A stretch of DNA of 64,000 nt. Source: an uncultured Verrucomicrobiae bacterium (GTDB lineage Bacteria; Verrucomicrobiota; Verrucomicrobiia; Chthoniobacterales; JAFAMB01). Of this stretch, positions 3,396-60,842 are shown in pieces. The position numbers and the translations under genes are program-made. The notes under the pieces are model-generated. The model was not told the origin of the DNA, did no database searches, and saw only the letters and a program-made list of their open reading frames with translations. Location of the stretch: positions 128,001-192,000 of the forward strand of contig CAWEXO010000005.1 of assembly GCA_963813025.1 (NCBI GenBank), written 5' to 3'. Position 1 is the first letter of the stretch. Every line of letters begins with the position of its first letter.

Positions 3396-3750
3396 GGTCT
3401 GTCGGACTTTGGCCAATCTGTAGCTCGCGCAATCGAGCTAAGGTTCGAGACATGTCCCAAAGCGTCTTTGGTCCTGCGCCGGTAGGGCGAAAATTTATTC
3501 GAGCCTTAGCGAGAACTTGTTTGAGCCGTCTTCAGTGTGACCTGCCGCAGCGCCCGGCTCGAACGAGTCTTCGCCGAAAGGCTCAGATGAATTCTCGCCC
3601 TACCGATTTTGGGATGTTGCGAGACATTCTCTAAATTTTCGCCCTACCGCCACAAGACAGTGCGGCATTCTGAGACGATCTCTAACCGCTCGGGCGACCA
3701 ATCGCTTGGGTGGCGTGCTACAGATTTCCAAAGTCCGACAAGTCCTGGAA
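3390..3750. mobile_element. MITE-like composite repeat with terminal inverted repeats, containing a GTAGGGCGAAAAT REP doublet
   Basis: TTCCAGGGTCTGTCGGACTTTGG ... CCAAAGTCCGACAAGTCCTGGAA; 3395-3709 nearly identical to 39892-40203; related copy at 24551-24917. Confidence 0.8.
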
Positions 3751-12967: not shown

Positions 12968-13612
12968 ATGAAAAACGATTCGAATTTGAATGTTGAGATT
13001 CGGGACGTGACAGACGGCTTGTGGGTGTGGCGATTCGAAAATCCCTTCTGGAAGCCTGGTCTCGATTGGGAGCCTCTCACGACGTCAACATGCGTTGCGT
13101 CAGGAGGTGAGATCCTGGTTCTGGATCCGCAGGCCCCACCATTCGGCGCAGTTGAGGTGTGGGAACGGCTTGATGCACGTCCCCCGACCGCAGTTGTTAT
13201 TCTCAAGCCGGATCACGTTCGAGATGCTGATCTGTTCGTGCGCCGTTACGGTTCCCGTGCATTCGGGCCAAAACTCTTCTTTCGTGACGACGTTCCTGAG
13301 ACCCTGCTGGAGCCGATTGAGCCCGGGAGCAATCTTCCGGGAGGGATCATCGCCCTGTATGATGGACGGGGCGAAAATGAAACGCCGCTATGGTTGCCTG
13401 AACAGCGGGCCCTTGTTTTTGCTGATGCGCTGACAGCGCCCGGAGGGGAGCTACGAGTTTGGGGGACACCATGGCATGAAGAGCGTGTATTACCGGCATT
13501 ACGCCGGTTGCTTGAGCTGCCATTCGAATACGTGATCGTTTCACACGGCGAGCCGGTGCATACTCGCGCCGCTTATGAGCGTGCTCTCGAGCTGATCCCC
13601 TGGACTGGATAA
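12968..13612 (+). CDS. Metallo-beta-lactamase-fold hydrolase-like protein
   Basis: Degenerate MBL motifs (LKPDHVRD, VFADAL, VSHGEP). Confidence 0.65.
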   Translation: MKNDSNLNVEIRDVTDGLWVWRFENPFWKPGLDWEPLTTSTCVASGGEILVLDPQAPPFGAVEVWERLDARPPTAVVILKPDHVRDADLFVRRYGSRAFGPKLFFRDDVPETLLEPIEPGSNLPGGIIALYDGRGENETPLWLPEQRALVFADALTAPGGELRVWGTPWHEERVLPALRRLLELPFEYVIVSHGEPVHTRAAYERALELIPWTG

Positions 13613-13686
13613 ACGAGGCTCAAAGAAAGAGAGCGTCTCGGAACATTCTTGGGCTCTGTGCTGGTAGGGCAGTATCTGAGCAGGTC

Positions 13687-13692
13687 TGGCAA
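13687..13692 (-). promoter_or_regulatory. -35 half (TTGCCA) of circle-junction promoter
   Basis: On circularisation: TTGCCA-17 nt-TATAGC (15349-15354). Confidence 0.7.
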
Positions 13693-13701
13693 GGGAAAAA
13701 G

Positions 13702-14976
13702 TTAAAGTTTTTCACCGATTGGTGAGTGGCGTTTTTTGAGGACTTGGAGGTAGCGCTCTTCGTCATAAGGGGTGCGGTCCTGCCAGAGCCGGAAGATGAC
13801 GCGGATCCATTTAAAGGCCAAGGCGCGCACGGCAGTGTGGTGGGACTTACCGCGGGCCATTTGCTCTTGATAATAGAGCTTGGCCCATTGGGAATAAGGA
13901 ATGGAATGAGCCGCGAATTCGTGGAAGCTCTGGCACAGGAATTTGGAGCGAAAGCGCCGCCGCTGGACGCTTTTGGTTTGGCCGCTGCGCACTTGGACCG
14001 GAGCGATTCCGCTTTTTTTCTGTACCTCCAGGGCTTGGGCAAAAGCCTGCCGATTGGAGCCAAAAGCCACCAACAAGCGCGGGGCTAATTGCGGGCCGGC
14101 TCCGGGCAGACTTTCAAAAATGTGCCGATCGGGATGTTTGGCAAACAGAGTGTGGATGGCTTTGTCAAAAGCCTTGATGGAATCTCGCAGCGGCAACAAT
14201 TGACTGACCAAACACTTGCAACTCAGCACGGAGGGCTCCAGCAGAGAACGATCCTCGGTGACGGTTTGGGCCCGAGCAATCTTTTCCAAGCGCTCCTCGA
14301 TCAAGCTCTGGCTGCGGCTGTGGTGCTGATAAAAAAAAGAGCGCAGGGTCTGGGGCTTGGCTTTTTTTAAACTCTGCAGGGTCGGCCAGCGTTTCAAAAA
14401 ATGCAGCGCCAGAGTGGTGCCCAAATCATCGAGGAGCTCGAGGGCCAGCGGATAGTAGACTTTGAGTAAGCTGGTGAGTTGGTTTTCGCACACCACGGAG
14501 GCCTCGACGGCTTTGCGTCGGTGCTGACCGAGCAAATCCAGTTCCCGCACTACCGGCTCCGGGGGTTGATAAAGCCGGAGCCGATCCCGATGGTGATCAA
14601 CGAGCTCTTCGATCAATTGGCTGTCGCGAGGGTCATCCTTGGCGCCACTAGTAAAGAAGACCTTGCGGTATTCGCTTAAACTCAAAGGATTGAGCGGATA
14701 GAGGTCGATCCAGTCTCCCTGGGTGCGGAGCATTTCAAAGAGTGCTCCCCGATTTTGTTCAAAACCAATGGCCACCCGCCCCTGCGGACCAGCCAAGCTT
14801 TTGAGCTCTTCGAGCCAGGTCCGAACCGAAACGGGATCGGCGCCCAGCTGGAATGTCCGGCATCCTCCCTCCGGACCAGAGCGTTGACAGACAGCGTGTT
14901 CTTTATCAGCCCAATCGATTCCCACGCTGACCATATAATGGGGATCTGGGACCGGAAACGGATTTGATCGGTTCAT
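13702..14976 (-). CDS. IS110-family DEDD transposase/recombinase
   Basis: RuvC-like DEDD residues (VGIDWAD, GFEQ, KDDPRD), LPGAGPQLAPRL, and SGIAP...RSG with candidate catalytic Ser; RBS AAGGAG. Confidence 0.95.
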   Translation of the reverse strand: MNRSNPFPVPDPHYMVSVGIDWADKEHAVCQRSGPEGGCRTFQLGADPVSVRTWLEELKSLAGPQGRVAIGFEQNRGALFEMLRTQGDWIDLYPLNPLSLSEYRKVFFTSGAKDDPRDSQLIEELVDHHRDRLRLYQPPEPVVRELDLLGQHRRKAVEASVVCENQLTSLLKVYYPLALELLDDLGTTLALHFLKRWPTLQSLKKAKPQTLRSFFYQHHSRSQSLIEERLEKIARAQTVTEDRSLLEPSVLSCKCLVSQLLPLRDSIKAFDKAIHTLFAKHPDRHIFESLPGAGPQLAPRLLVAFGSNRQAFAQALEVQKKSGIAPVQVRSGQTKSVQRRRFRSKFLCQSFHEFAAHSIPYSQWAKLYYQEQMARGKSHHTAVRALAFKWIRVIFRLWQDRTPYDEERYLQVLKKRHSPIGEKL

Positions 14977-15000
14977 GCTTGCTCCTTTTTTCTGGTTTTA

Positions 15001-15345
15001 CCCAGCGCGAAAAAAGCCGCTTGGCTTTGGCCGTCCGAAATCCGTATAGTTAAGTCGTCGAAGTGTGAAGTGCTCGACCTCAACTAGAGTATTCGTTGTG
15101 ACGAATCAAAGCGCGACCGGCTGGCTCGAAACTCTGCCCTAAAGATCTCGCGGACCCGAAAATCCTATTCGTAGCCAGCCGGCGCGTCCTTCTTCGCGTG
15201 GGCAGCGCGGGATTTTGCCCGACTGCCCTTGGCAAAGAAAACCCTTTCTTTTTTCCAAAGCTTTCTTTTCTCCGGGCGGAGTTATTCACAAGCTGGAGCT
15301 CCGACCGGTAGGGCCTCCGACCACAGCTTGCTGAATAACTCCGGA
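15001..15345 (-). ncRNA. Putative bridge RNA (target- and donor-binding loops) in the IS110 left end
   Basis: Two stem-internal-loop-stem domains closed by stem 15001-15016/15189-15202; loop segments match the REP target (GGATTTTCG, TAGGGC) and the circle junction (ATACT, CTATAC). Confidence 0.8.
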
Positions 15346-15348
15346 CTT

Positions 15349-15354
15349 GCTATA
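15349..15354 (-). promoter_or_regulatory. -10 half (TATAGC) of circle-junction promoter
   Basis: First six bases of the IS left end; 17 nt from TTGCCA in the circle. Confidence 0.7.
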
Positions 15355-15445
15355 CGAAAATTCACTCGAGCGGCCGAGGCCATGTTGCGAGACACTCCCA
15401 GACCGTATTCCCTCCTTGCTCCTTAGAACTCTGGCTGTCGGCCTG

Positions 15446-16435
15446 CTATAAGGCATGCACTGCGCTGAGCTGTTCGTGAACAAATTTGATGCGGTTCACC
15501 AACGGACGCCCGAACACCGGAGAGCTGATCTCGACGACGTCTTCGTCCTGCATCCTGATTCCATTGGCGAAAGAAAGTGTGCCTGTTCCGAAGAAATGGA
15601 CATGAACATCGCCAGGCCGACGAAATTGCGGGTACTTGAACTGGTGATATTCAAGGTTTGCCAGAGAATGGCTCATGTTGTCTTCTCCGGACAAAAACGG
15701 CTTTTCCCAAAGTACTTTTCCGTTCCGGAGAATGCGGCTTACTCCCGCCACGTGAGCGGGCAAAGACCCGACCAGCAATTCGGGTCCTAACGCGGAGGGG
15801 CGTAGTTTCGAATGCGCCAGGTAAAGATAGTTCCGTCTCTCCATGACGTGATCGGACAATTCGTTGCCGAGGGCAAACCCGACACGGCAAGGCCGAGTAT
15901 CGGGTCCGATGAGATAGAGCCCGACAATCTCCGGTTCTTCGCCGGCATCCTCGCCGAAACCAGGAACCGATAGTGAAGCGCCTGGACGAGCGATGATGCT
16001 GCCGTCGCCTTTATAGAACCACTCTGGCTGCACTCCCGGCCGACCCTGTTGAGGTTTTCCTCCCTCAACTCCCCACCGAAACATTTTGAGCGAATCAGTC
16101 AATTCTTCTGCCGCTGCGCTGATCTTCTGGTGCATTTGGTCGCGAGTCGCCGCGCTCCCCAGATGGGTCAGACCGGTTCCAGTGACTAGACAATGTGCTG
16201 GATCAGGGTGATCCAGTGGCGGAAGAATTTTCTGCTCTGCTAATAATCGGCTGTACTCATGCGTTCCCGCGACTTGGCAATTCTCGATTTGTTGGGCCAG
16301 AGTTTTACCTGAACCGATTGCTTGCCAAGCCAAATCCCGGATCGATTCCAGGCCTGCGATTTCCAGCGCCTTTTCTTCGTCGATGATCGCCACGGCACGG
16401 GCGCCGTCCGCTTTTTCGAATTGGATTAAATTCAT
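15446..16435 (-). CDS. AraD1/GguC family (FAH superfamily) protein
   Basis: GTGLTHLGSA, QPEWFYKG, GEEPE, NYLYLAHSKLR motifs. Confidence 0.88.
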   Translation of the reverse strand: MNLIQFEKADGARAVAIIDEEKALEIAGLESIRDLAWQAIGSGKTLAQQIENCQVAGTHEYSRLLAEQKILPPLDHPDPAHCLVTGTGLTHLGSAATRDQMHQKISAAAEELTDSLKMFRWGVEGGKPQQGRPGVQPEWFYKGDGSIIARPGASLSVPGFGEDAGEEPEIVGLYLIGPDTRPCRVGFALGNELSDHVMERRNYLYLAHSKLRPSALGPELLVGSLPAHVAGVSRILRNGKVLWEKPFLSGEDNMSHSLANLEYHQFKYPQFRRPGDVHVHFFGTGTLSFANGIRMQDEDVVEISSPVFGRPLVNRIKFVHEQLSAVHAL

Positions 16436-24550: not shown

Positions 24551-24917
24551 GGGTCTGTCGGACTTTGGAGCACGCGGTACGATTTTTGTAATTTGCTTCG
24601 CGACCTGACAAGATCGGTAGGGCGAAAATTCAATTGAGCGCCAGGCGAGAACTTGTTTGAGCCGTCTTGGGCGCGGCGAACCCCAACATCCGGCTCGAAC
24701 GAGTCCTCGCCGAAGGCTCGGATGAATTCTCGCCCTACCGACCGTGAAACAAGACCACTCCCTTGTGTGAAGGTTCTCGTGCTTCGGACACGTCCCGAGG
24801 TCAGGCCAACCCGGCGGCGTCTTGGAGTGCGCGCGACTTGTCGCCGCTTTCGGATCGCGCGGAGCGCGGCCAATGCAGATCTTCCGGATCTTCTCACGCC
24901 TAAAGTCCGACGGACCC
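24551..24917. mobile_element. MITE-like composite repeat with TIRs and an internal REP doublet
   Basis: GGGTCTGTCGGACTTT ... AAAGTCCGACGGACCC (15/16 inverted match); GTAGGGCGAAAAT...ATTCTCGCCCTAC inside. Confidence 0.8.
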
Positions 24918-39891: not shown

Positions 39892-40203
39892 GGGTCTGTC
39901 GGACTTTGGTCAATCTGTAGCTCGCGCAATCGAGCTAAGATTCGAGACATGTCCCAAAGTGTCTTTGGTCCTGCGCCGGTAGGGCGAAAATTTATTCGAG
40001 CCTTAGCGAGAACTTGTTTGAGCCGTCTTCAGTGTGAATTCCCCAACGCCCGGCTCGAACGAGTCTTCGCCGAAGGCTCAGATGAATTCTCGCCCTACCG
40101 ATTTTGGGATGTTGCGAAACCTTCTCTAAACTTTGCCCTACAGGCACAGGACAGTGCGGCAATCTGAGACGATCTCTAACCGCTCGGGCGACCAATCGCT
40201 TGG
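39892..40203. repeat. Copy of the ~315 bp composite repeat (left TIR only)
   Basis: Near-identical to 3395-3709. Confidence 0.9.
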
Positions 40204-46006: not shown

Positions 46007-46154
46007 CCCTGTGTCGGTAGGGCGAAAATTCATTTGAGCCGGACGCTGGGTGGGCCCCCGCTCCAGACGGCTCCTCCTTCGCTAAAGCTATGGCGGACAC
46101 GTCAAACAAGTTCTCCCTAAGGCTCAAATGAATTTTCGCCCTACCGACACAGGG
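46007..46154. repeat. REP doublet (REPIN-like) with a perfect 34 bp inverted repeat
   Basis: ccctgtgtcggtagggcgaaaattcatttgagcc (46007-46040) / exact reverse complement at 46121-46154. Confidence 0.9.
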
Positions 46155-55740: not shown

Positions 55741-56052
55741 CTGGGCGCGTCCTTCTGGAGGCTTTGGCCTCCGGGCCGGCAAAGGTCGCTTTTTCGCGCT
55801 TAACAGTCCGCTCTGAACCAAACGCTAACGGAATGGCAACAGTTCTGAATTTTCAGGAAGTCGGCGGCACGCGGTATTTCGATGCAGCGGGTTTTCCCGG
55901 AAGAACGGTCGGGCTGCAAGCCGGGCATTGAGGTAGTGCCAGTGCTGGTGCTAGTGCTAGTGTCGGTTGTCAGCAGCATGGTCGGACTAGCAGCGCCTTA
56001 TTTCCGCTGACGCGTGAGGCGACGACGCATCCGGCCCTGCGTGGGACGCTAC

Positions 56053-58113
56053 GTAGCGCCGACGGCCTCGTCGGTACACCCCGGGGGAGATTGCCCAGCA
56101 CGTCGCGCAATCAGTCGATCTCAACGGCGCAGGTGATACGTAGCGCCGACGGCCTCGTCGGTACACCCCGGGGGAGATGCCCAGCACGTTGCGCAATCAG
56201 TCGATCTCAACGGCGCAGGTGATACGTAGCGCCGACGGCCTCGTCGGTACACCCCGGGGAAGGTGCCCAGCACGTTGGGCAATCAGTCGATCTCAACGGC
56301 ACAGGCGATACGTGGCGCCGACGGCCTCGTCGGTACATTGCGGAATCCAAGCAAAGCCGGTCTTAGTCCAGATGAATACACGCTCTGGAGTTATGCATAG
56401 CGCAGCTTTGAGCGTCACCGGATCGAGGGGATCGCACGACGTCTTGGGCGTGTACACCGGAGTACCGACGGGGCCGTCGGCGCTACGCAACGCACACGCC
56501 TTTCTGGGTCACCGGATCGAGTGGATCGCGCGACGTCTTGGGCGTGTTCACCGCGTACCGACGGGGCCGTCGGCGCTACGCAACGCACACGCCTTTTGTG
56601 GTCACGGGATCGAGCGGATCGCACGACGTCTTTCGGCGTGTTTACGGGCGTACCGACGGGGCCGTCGGCGCTACGCCGACCTCGGGCGTGCCCGAATACG
56701 TCGCGCAATCAGTCGATCTCAAGGGCGCAGGTGCTACGTAACGCCGACGGCCTCGTCGGTACATCCCGGGAAGGTGCCCAGCACGTTGAGCAATCAGTCG
56801 ATCTCAACGGCACAGGCAATACGTAGCGCCGACGGCCTCGTCGGTACACCCCGGGGAAGGTGCCCAGCACGTTGAGCAATCAGTCGATCTCAACGGCACA
56901 GGCGATACGTAGCGCCGACGGCCTCGTCGGTACACCCCGGGGAAGGTGCCCAGCACGTTGCGCAATCAGTCGATCTCAACGGCACAGGCGATACGTAGTG
57001 CCGACGGCCTCGTCGGTACATTGCGGGATCCACTGGACAGTCTTGCAAAACAGAATCACAACTATTATAAAATTGGTTATATATGCGAGAACGTTTTCAG
57101 CCCTTCTCAAGGGGCGGCGCAGTGTCAAGGCACCGCCGGCGGCTCCCGCACTGGCAGCAAAACGGTGCGACATACTTTGTGACGTTCCGATTGGCTGACT
57201 CGGTTCCACAAGTGCTGCTCCAGAGATCGGAAGAGGAAAAGGCCTCTTGGCTTCGAAACAACCCGAAACCTTGGAAGCCGGCTGCGGCTCAAGAATATAG
57301 AACTCGCTTCTCCAACAAAATGGAGCGGTGGCTCGATAGGGGCTATGGCAGTTGTCTGCTCCGGAATCCTGAAATCCGGGCTGTTGTGGAAGAACATCTG
57401 CTGTTTCAACACGAAAGGGAATATTTCCTAAATAGCTTCGTAGTGATGCCGAACCACGTCCATGTTCTGGTCGTTCCACGGCAACCACTCGCGAAATTGG
57501 TGCAAAGGTGGAAGTCTTGCTCTTGCCGGCGTATCAACACACTCCGCCGAGGTTTGGGAACTCTGTGGATGCGGGAATACTTTGATCACATCGTTCGTGA
57601 TGCTGTCCGGCTGGAAAGATTTCGCGATTACCTGCGAAGCAATCCAAGCAAAGCCGGTCTTAGTCCAGATGAATACACGCTCTGGACTTATGCATAACGC
57701 GGCTTTCTGCGTCACCGGATCGAGTGGATCGCGCGGCCTCTTGGGTGTGTTTACCGGAGAACCGACGGGGCACGTCGGTGCTACGCCGACCTCGGGCGTG
57801 CCCAGCACGTCGCGCAATCAGTCGATCTCAACGGCGCAGGTGATATGTAGCGCCGACGGCCTCGTCGGTACATTGCGGAATCCAGGCAAAGCCGGTCTTA
57901 GTCCAGACGAATACACGCTCTGGACTTATGCATAACGCGGCTTTCTGGTTCACCGGATCGAGGGATCGCACGACGTCTTGGGCGTGTGTACCGGAGTACC
58001 GACGGGGCCGTCGGCGCTAGCAACGCGCACGCCTTTCTGCGTCACGGGATCGAGGGGATCGCACGACGTCTTGGGCGTGTGTACCGGAGTACCGACGGGG
58101 CCGTCGGCGCTAC
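56053..58113. repeat. REP (BIME-like) arrays around RAYT: 15 copies of GTAGCGCCGACGGCC(T/C)CGTCGGTAC
   Basis: Direct copies at 56053, 56140, 56226, 56312, 56738, 56823, 56909, 56995, 57847; inverted at 56462, 56555, 56650, ~57759, 57996, 58089; conserved linkers. Confidence 0.93.
57083..57697 (+). CDS. REP-associated tyrosine transposase (RAYT, TnpA-REP)
   Basis: LPHW, YFVTFRL, HUH motif VMPNHVH, WMREYFDHIVRD, YLRSNP; flanked by GTAG REPs. Confidence 0.93.
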   Translation: MRERFQPFSRGGAVSRHRRRLPHWQQNGATYFVTFRLADSVPQVLLQRSEEEKASWLRNNPKPWKPAAAQEYRTRFSNKMERWLDRGYGSCLLRNPEIRAVVEEHLLFQHEREYFLNSFVVMPNHVHVLVVPRQPLAKLVQRWKSCSCRRINTLRRGLGTLWMREYFDHIVRDAVRLERFRDYLRSNPSKAGLSPDEYTLWTYA

Positions 58114-58115
58114 GC

Positions 58116-58577
58116 CTACACCTTCAGTTCGGTCTCTTCCTGCTCAAACAGCTCAAGGCTTACGGCCGGTTCTGTTGCCTCCAGAAGTGATTTGCGGGAT
58201 TTGGCGTCGCGAAAGATTCGCATCAGCAGGCCTACCACCCGCAAATACTCCGAATCCAGGGCTTTCGGAACGCCAATCACAAAGAGGAACTGCAGAAAAC
58301 TGTTTCGCTCCTCGAGTGGGGGTAATAAGCGTCCAAAAGCCATCACCATCTCGTTTACGGCGTTGGTTCGGATATGTACAAGAGCAAGGCCGAAATCGTA
58401 AGTAGCTTTGCTTTTGCTTTCCTTGTCAATCAACTGATTGTAAAACTGTCGCCAATCGACGACGCGCGCGTCTTGCTGCAGAGATTGCGCCACCCGACGC
58501 ACGGCTTCTTCCCGCGTGCCCACTTTTATATCCAGCAGGACGTTTTCCGGGCGCAGCGCTTCGCGAAACCGGATCAT
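58116..58577 (-). CDS. PTS EIIA (Fru/Ntr-type) domain protein
   Basis: GLALVHIRT with phospho-His; MAFGR; YLRVVG. Confidence 0.8.
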   Translation of the reverse strand: MIRFREALRPENVLLDIKVGTREEAVRRVAQSLQQDARVVDWRQFYNQLIDKESKSKATYDFGLALVHIRTNAVNEMVMAFGRLLPPLEERNSFLQFLFVIGVPKALDSEYLRVVGLLMRIFRDAKSRKSLLEATEPAVSLELFEQEETELKV

Positions 58578-60582: not shown

Positions 60583-60842
60583 GGTAGGGACGAGCTCCGC
60601 TCGTCCGAATGGCGAGATCCACCTGCGCTCAAATGGTCAAGCAGGAATTTGACCGGAGTTTGACCCTGCCGCCTCAGGTGTTGCGGGACAATCTCTTTAT
60701 TCGAACCTCCGGCGGGAACTCGTTTGAGCCGCACACAGGGGGTGTGCCACACCTCCACGACGGCTCAAACAAGTTCTCGCTGACGCTCGAATGAATTTTC
60801 GCCCTACCAGCACAGAGCCCAGGAATGTTCCGAGGCGCTCTC
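60583..60842. repeat. Composite REP cluster containing an empty IS110 target site
   Basis: GTAGGGACGAGCTCCGCTCGTCC hairpin plus ...gaattttcGccctaccagcacagagccc matching the IS110 flanks. Confidence 0.85.

Follow-up and report, generated by a model that had tools for sequence, protein, structure and literature searches.

REP-specific insertion was listed in 2006 for the IS110-family elements ISPa11, ISPpu9, ISPpu10, and ISRm19 (Tobes and Pareja, PMC1525189), and IS621 inserts at E. coli REPs (Durrant 2024, PMC11208160). The CT core of IS621 has been called invariant and always paired (PMC13626964), its T9 is read by the protein (Hiraizumi 2024, PMC11208158), and reprogramming of this core has concerned the first base only, changed in both partners (PMC11208160). 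IS622 designs need matching cores, and the pairs selected for editing had the same core, CT or GT, in both partners (10.1101/2025.05.14.653916). ISPpu9 and ISPpu10 have a shared two-base core, AG or CT (PMC1525189, PMC12288879, 10.64898/2026.03.19.712850), and the targets of ISPpu10 are 97% noncoding and often paired (10.64898/2026.03.19.712850). In ISMch6, guides have been redirected naturally through changes in the bottom-strand guide (Siddiquee 2024, PMC11187229); according to the same source, target duplication is not characteristic of the IS110 family, which makes a one-base overlap such as the one reported below less surprising.

We analyzed an IS110-group element in a 64,000-nt stretch of DNA from an uncultured Verrucomicrobiae bacterium (the window, i.e., the whole stretch). 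The element resembles IS621 in its DEDD and serine recombinase, its long upstream noncoding end, a two-loop bridge RNA and a circle-junction promoter (both predicted here, the latter from the element ends), predicted handshake pairing with the partner DNA, and an insertion site close to the GTAG/CTAC end of a REP. It differs from IS621 in the length of the recombinase (424 aa, against about 328 aa in IS621; phmmer E = 8.7e-6, C-terminal half only), in a cut that appears to lie ~four bases further into the REP, away from the GTAG end, and in the core, where position 9 would be G and position 8 unequal between target and donor. Because the recombinases are only distantly alike and the cut position is shifted, the use of REPs is likely independent of that in IS621, as a preliminary description of this DNA had proposed.

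As in ISPpu10, ISPpu9, ISPa11, and ISRm19, all copies sit at one base of an intergenic REP of which many sites are empty, and the targets are frequently paired as in ISPpu10 (101 of 178 sites have a neighbor site within 200 bp); ISPpu9 and ISPpu10, however, share two core bases where this element shares one. An upstream guide RNA and natural guide redirection are traits in common with ISEc21 and ISMch6 (seekRNA). One redirected relative with one copy is reported for ISMch6, whereas here the left guide exists in four forms that follow the REP variants of the hosts, beside a fixed right guide, and guides crossed to nonidentical cores are not described in the accessible part of that report on ISEc21 and ISMch6 (PMC11187229). 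In the literature searched, we found no account of IS110 elements with REPs in Verrucomicrobia. REP targeting alone adds one lineage to a known list, and it is the core that is of interest: the crossed, unequal core with G9, together with a guide that tracks the REP, would be the new part.

The element and its insertion junctions

The element and the two halves of the repeat that it splits are located in the window as follows.

13670..15355 (−): IS110-group element of 1686 bp, a length that counts both copies of the shared base (G at 15355 and 13670, − strand); ends set by 11 left-end and 10 right-end genome matches
13702..14976 (−): IS110 DEDD recombinase ORF, 424 aa, with GID, GFEQ, and KDDPRD motifs and an RSG serine aligned to ESG of IS621
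15356..15375 (−): left half of the split REP, ending in GAATTTTC
13630..13669 (−): right half of the split REP, starting with CCCTACC

The insertion splits the repeat at ATTTTC/G/CCCTA. An IS110 insertion at 13630–15375 had been claimed earlier; the insertion is borne out but its extent is not, the element covering 13670–15355 and the remainder being flank. The joined flanks were said to reproduce an empty site from 60785 onward, and, when joined over one G, they do so at 54 of 57 aligned bases. The recombinase matches PF01548 and PF02371 above cut-off and NF033542 at 148 bits (cut-off 140), in agreement with the IS110 identity first given to it. The noncoding ends measure 379 bp upstream of the recombinase and 32 bp downstream, which is the IS110-group layout; membership in the IS1111 group, where the long noncoding region is downstream, was rejected. 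An imperfect 11-bp subterminal inverted repeat (9/11) was seen by eye at the element ends. The whole element sits between the convergent ORFs 12968–13612 (+) and 15446–16435 (−).

The host genome (G000; 4.4 Mb, 80% complete) carries 10 full copies at 98–100% identity and one 5′ fragment. AATTTTC precedes 11 of 11 left ends and CCCTACC comes after 10 of 10 right ends, so every left and right end lies in the REP, and the condition earlier named as refuting, copies in unrelated sequence, did not occur. Whether all copies sit at the same G had been put as a check: the insertion base is fixed, with G at nine of ten right junctions and A at one. One specific insertion site common to all copies is an IS110-family trait. 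The closest named homologues are in one Verrucomicrobiota MAG and one Acidiferrales MAG. Nine other IS110-like regions of the genome were inspected by eye, and none has this REP junction; other IS110-family elements at 24–40% identity, several of them disrupted or nested with further ISs, lie at G000 C13:18620, C13:452680, C3:83269, C11:72255, C13:99368, and elsewhere.

The flanks of the copies diverge after about 10–50 bp and belong to different REP units, one copy being in an inner repeat unit, which indicates separate insertions at a short site. Shared flanks could also go back to one insertion that was multiplied later through gene conversion, segmental duplication, or an error of assembly, and recombination between copies does happen, as seen in mosaic SNP blocks at element positions 628–1078 (the recombinase gene; two alleles and recombinants among the G000 copies), which suggest gene conversion between copies. 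The divergence of the flanks in different REP units largely refutes a single insertion, however, and the same junctions are found in relatives from other genomes. In run X1 (possibly the source sample, and so not independent), element contigs also break at the junctions, with a depth of ~24 vs. ~3 for the flanks; neither joined element ends nor the empty site was seen among the contigs of this run, which speaks in neither direction. We consider a single copied insertion extremely unlikely, and separate insertions remain our reading.

The bases of the guides described below are identical in 10 of 10 full copies. It is likely that the element has spread recently and that the bridge RNA in its upstream end directs insertion to the GTAG end of a host REP associated with RAYT genes; by analogy with known relatives, it is very probably steered to the repeat by a guide RNA that it encodes.

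In three copies (G000 C1:207985, C11:77964, and C13:92670; two SNP sub-lineages), 13 bp of the left end are duplicated in tandem, and the right donor guide together with its handshake bases is perfectly complementary, over 9 bases, to the inner junction of this duplication. This duplication may be a half-match join made by the recombinase rather than slippage; a similar duplication, of 12 bp, is present in locus L079. The truncated copy at G000 C1:207760-207998 breaks off within the target-binding loop without reaching the right guide, and REP-like sequence follows.

The target repeat and its occupancy

GTAG-family REPs with RAYT (TnpA-REP) genes are arranged as REPINs or BIMEs. The window holds seven uninterrupted copies of the target and three of a variant, at the positions at which both had been reported.

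3483..3494 (−): empty target in REP, exact 12-mer ATTTTCGCCCTA
3635..3646 (+): empty target in REP, exact 12-mer
24618..24629 (−): empty target in REP, exact 12-mer
39980..39991 (−): empty target in REP, exact 12-mer
46018..46029 (−): empty target in REP, exact 12-mer
46132..46143 (+): empty target in REP, exact 12-mer
60795..60806 (+): empty target in REP, exact 12-mer, nearest match to the preinsertion site
3591..3602 (+): REP end of the ATTCTC variant, with C as target position 6, variant 12-mer ATTCTCGCCCTA
24726..24737 (+): ATTCTC variant REP end, variant 12-mer
40086..40097 (+): ATTCTC variant REP end, variant 12-mer

The 12-mer at ≤1 mismatch has 10 matches in the window against 0.34 ± 0.61 expected. 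Genome-wide, 130 exact ATTTTCGCCCTAC 13-mers and 48 ATTCTC sites are empty, so that many sites are available, as had been supposed. The other strand of the repeat starts with GTAG, and this tag and the high copy number of the two 13-mers are those of a REP. ORFs of at least 200 aa (mechanical ORFs, not from a gene caller) cover 72% of the genome, while 8 of the 130 and 3 of the 48 sites lie inside them, i.e., the repeat is mostly extragenic. The profile NF047646 gave 17 subthreshold RAYT-like matches in the genome, merged into 14 regions (best 71.6 bits vs. cut-off 80), and the repeat lies on both sides of three of the 14 (59.5–67.7 bits vs. cut-off 80), two with the ATTCTC variant and one with the GTAGGGCGAAAA type. 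Given the GTAG start, the extragenic location, and the RAYT-like flanking, the assignment to a host REP family, RAYT-associated, holds. The “safe harbour” that had been proposed would follow from the location of the REPs.

The repeat thus shares with GTAG-family REPs the GTAG tag, >100 intergenic copies, inverted pairs ~100 bp apart, and clusters flanking Y1-type transposase genes. It differs from them in a weak fold after GTAG (mean about −2 kcal/mol over 33 nt) and in RAYT-like genes that score below the family cut-off. One such gene lies in the window at 57083–57697 (+) (a RAYT-like tyrosine transposase, 76 bits vs. NF047646 cut-off 80, in the region 56050–58240). It was ruled out as the cognate transposase of the target REP, a different GTAG repeat flanking the gene; this repeat, a second GTAG REP family whose palindrome is strong, has 45 exact 13-mer copies in the genome, forms a large cluster around the gene, and is unused by the IS.

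The occupied contexts are GAATTTTC (n = 6) and AAATTTTC (n = 5), and the same two contexts are the commonest among empty sites (43 and 84, respectively). ATTTTC-type sites are occupied in 11 of 141 cases and ATTCTC-type sites in 0 of 48 (one-sided test under no preference: P = 0.036; Fisher exact test: P = 0.068, two-tailed). Avoidance of ATTCTC, raised earlier as a point to check, is statistically borderline in these counts and only suggestive. C at target position 6 would make one guide pair a wobble and break one handshake pair; locus L060 occupies a site with a comparable U·G wobble, at position 4. The unentered ATTCTC variant flanks RAYT-like genes at G000 C14:454645 and C15:124797, and avoidance would spare RAYT-proximal repeats. 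A site outside the REP family, at G000 C5:54682, is a perfect Watson–Crick match to the target guide and is empty.

A conserved 5′ stem-loop is reported in ISPpu10 targets beside base pairing (10.64898/2026.03.19.712850), and protein recognition of a REP stem-loop might likewise be the main targeting cue here, with the guide match secondary. The target of L069 carries a 5-bp GGCTC/GAGCC hairpin, and five of the 11 occupied sites show a weak CGAA/TTCG stem. The 11 sites have no stem in common, however, the folds being different (−0.5 to −4.3 kcal/mol), and one copy occupies an inner repeat unit without the GGCTC arm. Mean fold energies are alike at occupied sites (−2.42), empty T-variant sites (−2.11), and empty C-variant sites (−2.42). 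An ISPpu10-like stem-loop gate received no support, and recognition mainly by protein is very unlikely; targeting by the guides is the reading that we follow below.

Putative bridge RNA and unequal cores

The guides and the unshared core go beyond the preliminary description. Features of the upstream noncoding end, with the −35 box from the opposite end, are given below.

15025..15188 (−): putative bridge-RNA core made of a target-binding and, after it, a donor-binding loop, both closed by CGAA/UUCG (RNAalifold and single-sequence fold)
15158..15165 (−): left target guide GGAUUUUC, matching target positions 1–8 (RAATTTTC; G·T wobble at positions 1–2) and changing with the flank in relatives
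15133..15141 (−): UAGGG as right target guide, followed by CA (core-binding) and GA (handshake); complementary to the right junction (donor core TG + CCCTA)
15084..15094 (−): region of the left donor guide, register uncertain: either AUACU beside the core or a bulged CUC-U-AG, with no covariation that would favor one of them
15041..15049 (−): CUAUA as right donor guide, followed by CG (core-binding) and GA (handshake); complementary to the left junction (target core CG + TATAG)
15277..15344 (−): long hairpin close to the left end, also present in relatives (arms taken from the alignment)
15349..15354 (−): TATAGC, read from the sequence, which would serve both as right-donor arm and as −10 box of a predicted promoter at the circle junction; TATAG kept in relatives
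13687..13692 (−): TTGCCA, predicted −35 box, 17 bp from the −10 box when the ends are joined, read from the sequence; TTG-type hexamers at the same place in relatives

RNAalifold over 13 elements gave 29 pairs, 15 of them with compensatory changes, and two internal loops, and the single-sequence fold of the upstream arm has z = −4.86. Fold and covariation are both those of a bridge RNA; three of the four guides are clear, and the left donor guide is uncertain. A search of Rfam returned two chance-level matches only, far under the gathering scores. The loop of the left-end hairpin, at about 15305–15315 (−) of the window, contains GCCCTACC, which is the right half of the element’s own target; relatives have other sequence there.

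On the model of IS621, the element ends would join into a circle, forming the predicted TTGCCA-17-TATAGC promoter. The target loop of the bridge RNA would then pair with RAATTTTC (bottom strand) and CCCTA (top strand), and the donor loop with the joined element ends, after which the top strands would be cut after position 9 and swapped. The two leading G bases of the left target guide (positions 1–2) would, through wobble pairing, allow the same guide to recognize the two dominant REP variants.

Target and element ends share one base only at the junctions, and no IS621-type identical dinucleotide with T as the second base is present. In IS621 numbering, the core would be CG in the target and TG in the donor, instead of a shared CT. 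In this position-9 register, position 8 differs between target (C) and donor (T), and the shared position 9 is G, not T. The target-loop CA mismatches target C8 and pairs with donor T8, and the donor-loop CG forms a pair with target C8 but no more than a wobble with donor T8. Each right guide thus appears to complement the core of the partner, as if the handshake rule of Hiraizumi et al. were carried into the core: the target-loop core bases would fit the donor and the donor-loop core bases the target, with position 8 acting as a third handshake base that favors the exchanged state and position 9 (G) alone being common. Within the clade of the element (elements at 63–100% identity, those outside the host at 63–72%), and read in this register, all 19 loci have CG as the target core, and 15 of the 16 with a readable right end have TG as the donor core, many of the loci being near-identical kin.

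The numbering was set by more distant relatives, in which the left junction is CT-TATAG, the right junction is CTCAG, four bases, and CT, and the donor guide is CUAUA-AG or a close variant. Parsing succeeded for 41 of 132 loci and gave 21 guide sets: 13 CT/CT, 1 AT/AT, 1 CA/TA, 5 of the element’s clade, and 1 misparsed (the automatic parser misread L036/L038; L042 and L167 were unparsed in clade parsing, and L042 was read by eye). L031 has CA/TA cores, guides UA and UG, and crossed complementarity with standard loop spacing, and it is sister to the clade (SH-aLRT 99). L042, by eye, has CG/TG cores with crossed complementarity and standard spacing; it is placed elsewhere in the tree, but its grouping with the clade is not rejected (p-AU = 0.35), and its split core may share one origin with that of the clade. 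L007/L084 were discarded as a clean split core: their cores are unequal either way (TT/AT or CT/AT), but their left guide does not keep the register, and a tree that unites them with the other split-core elements in a single clade is rejected (p-AU = 0.005). All of these trees are quick trees.

The clade target loop has one extra base, and a spacing-strict parser puts the core at donor CT, one base earlier, so that the cut position is ambiguous by one base. In that register, bridge-RNA targeting would use a donor CT core (ATA-CT-GTATA) and a target core TC, with the shared G as position 10 of both right arms, and the cores would share no base. The target loop AGGGC-AG-AG-U-UUCG of the clade does match the CT-core relatives in spacing and motif, and the junction sequences are compatible with either cut. 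The earlier register, however, gives the donor loop a nonstandard spacing and conflicts with the CT relatives, in which TATAG occupies positions 10–14. Furthermore, one and the same base precedes TATAG and the right target in CT, AT, CA/TA, and CG/TG elements alike, an identity that points to the shared base as core, and L042 has TT, not CT, at donor positions 7–8 with standard spacing in both loops. We regard the earlier register as unlikely and retain the position-9 register; in either, target and donor share no dinucleotide.

The broader proposal, for which we see the balance as even, is that of a natural bridge-recombinase lineage that recombines nonidentical cores: T9 would have become G (A in the sister lineage), position 8 would be an extra handshake base driving one-way insertion, the right guide would be pinned on the GTAG tag that REPs must keep, and the left guide would be retuned, with wobble, to the host REP variant. 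In the literature searched, no natural mismatched, unequal, or single-base core is described, and such cores may already be catalogued in supplements beyond it; three short junction and guide motifs had no convincing match in the searchable part of the Durrant 2024 supplements. If the proposal is true, the rule of a matching CT or GT core in designing edits with bridge recombinases would relax, and a natural, recently multiplied enzyme with G9 and unequal cores would widen the range of joinable sites and give a built-in direction bias. It would also make it possible to trace how a guide RNA follows a repeat of its host.

Guides and repeats in relatives

The right target guide UAGGG-CA is invariant in 19 of 19 clade loci parsed, with a right flank of GCCCTAC or nearly so, and the left guide occurs as four sequences. 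An element’s own guide is the best or tied best fit to its flank in seven of nine distinct guide–flank pairs, and the two misses, L070 and L005, fit another guide better. L070 is probably a chimera, with the left end of one element type and the guide of another, and was set aside as evidence for wobble tolerance.

Host repeats differ in the same direction between two of the 43 family genomes, a contrast of two genomes and not a statistic: G000 has 129 sites of the REP variant read by its own guide and 0 of two variants targeted by relatives, and G269 has 0 sites of the G000-type variant and 5 of the variant read by the guide of the G269 element. The GGGCGAGGCTC-type repeat is present in 25 of the 43 family genomes, and the target repeat looks like an A/T-shifted tandem form of this type.

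Among the relatives, L160 (in G120) is a mini-element of ~170 bp, with the left end joined at an internal CTG straight to CCCTACC, the junction predicted by the right target guide. The flanks of L032, L042, L086, L031, and L012, which are more distant subfamily members, appear by eye to be hairpin-like, REP-like repeats of other sequence families, and targeting of repeats may be common across this IS110 subfamily.
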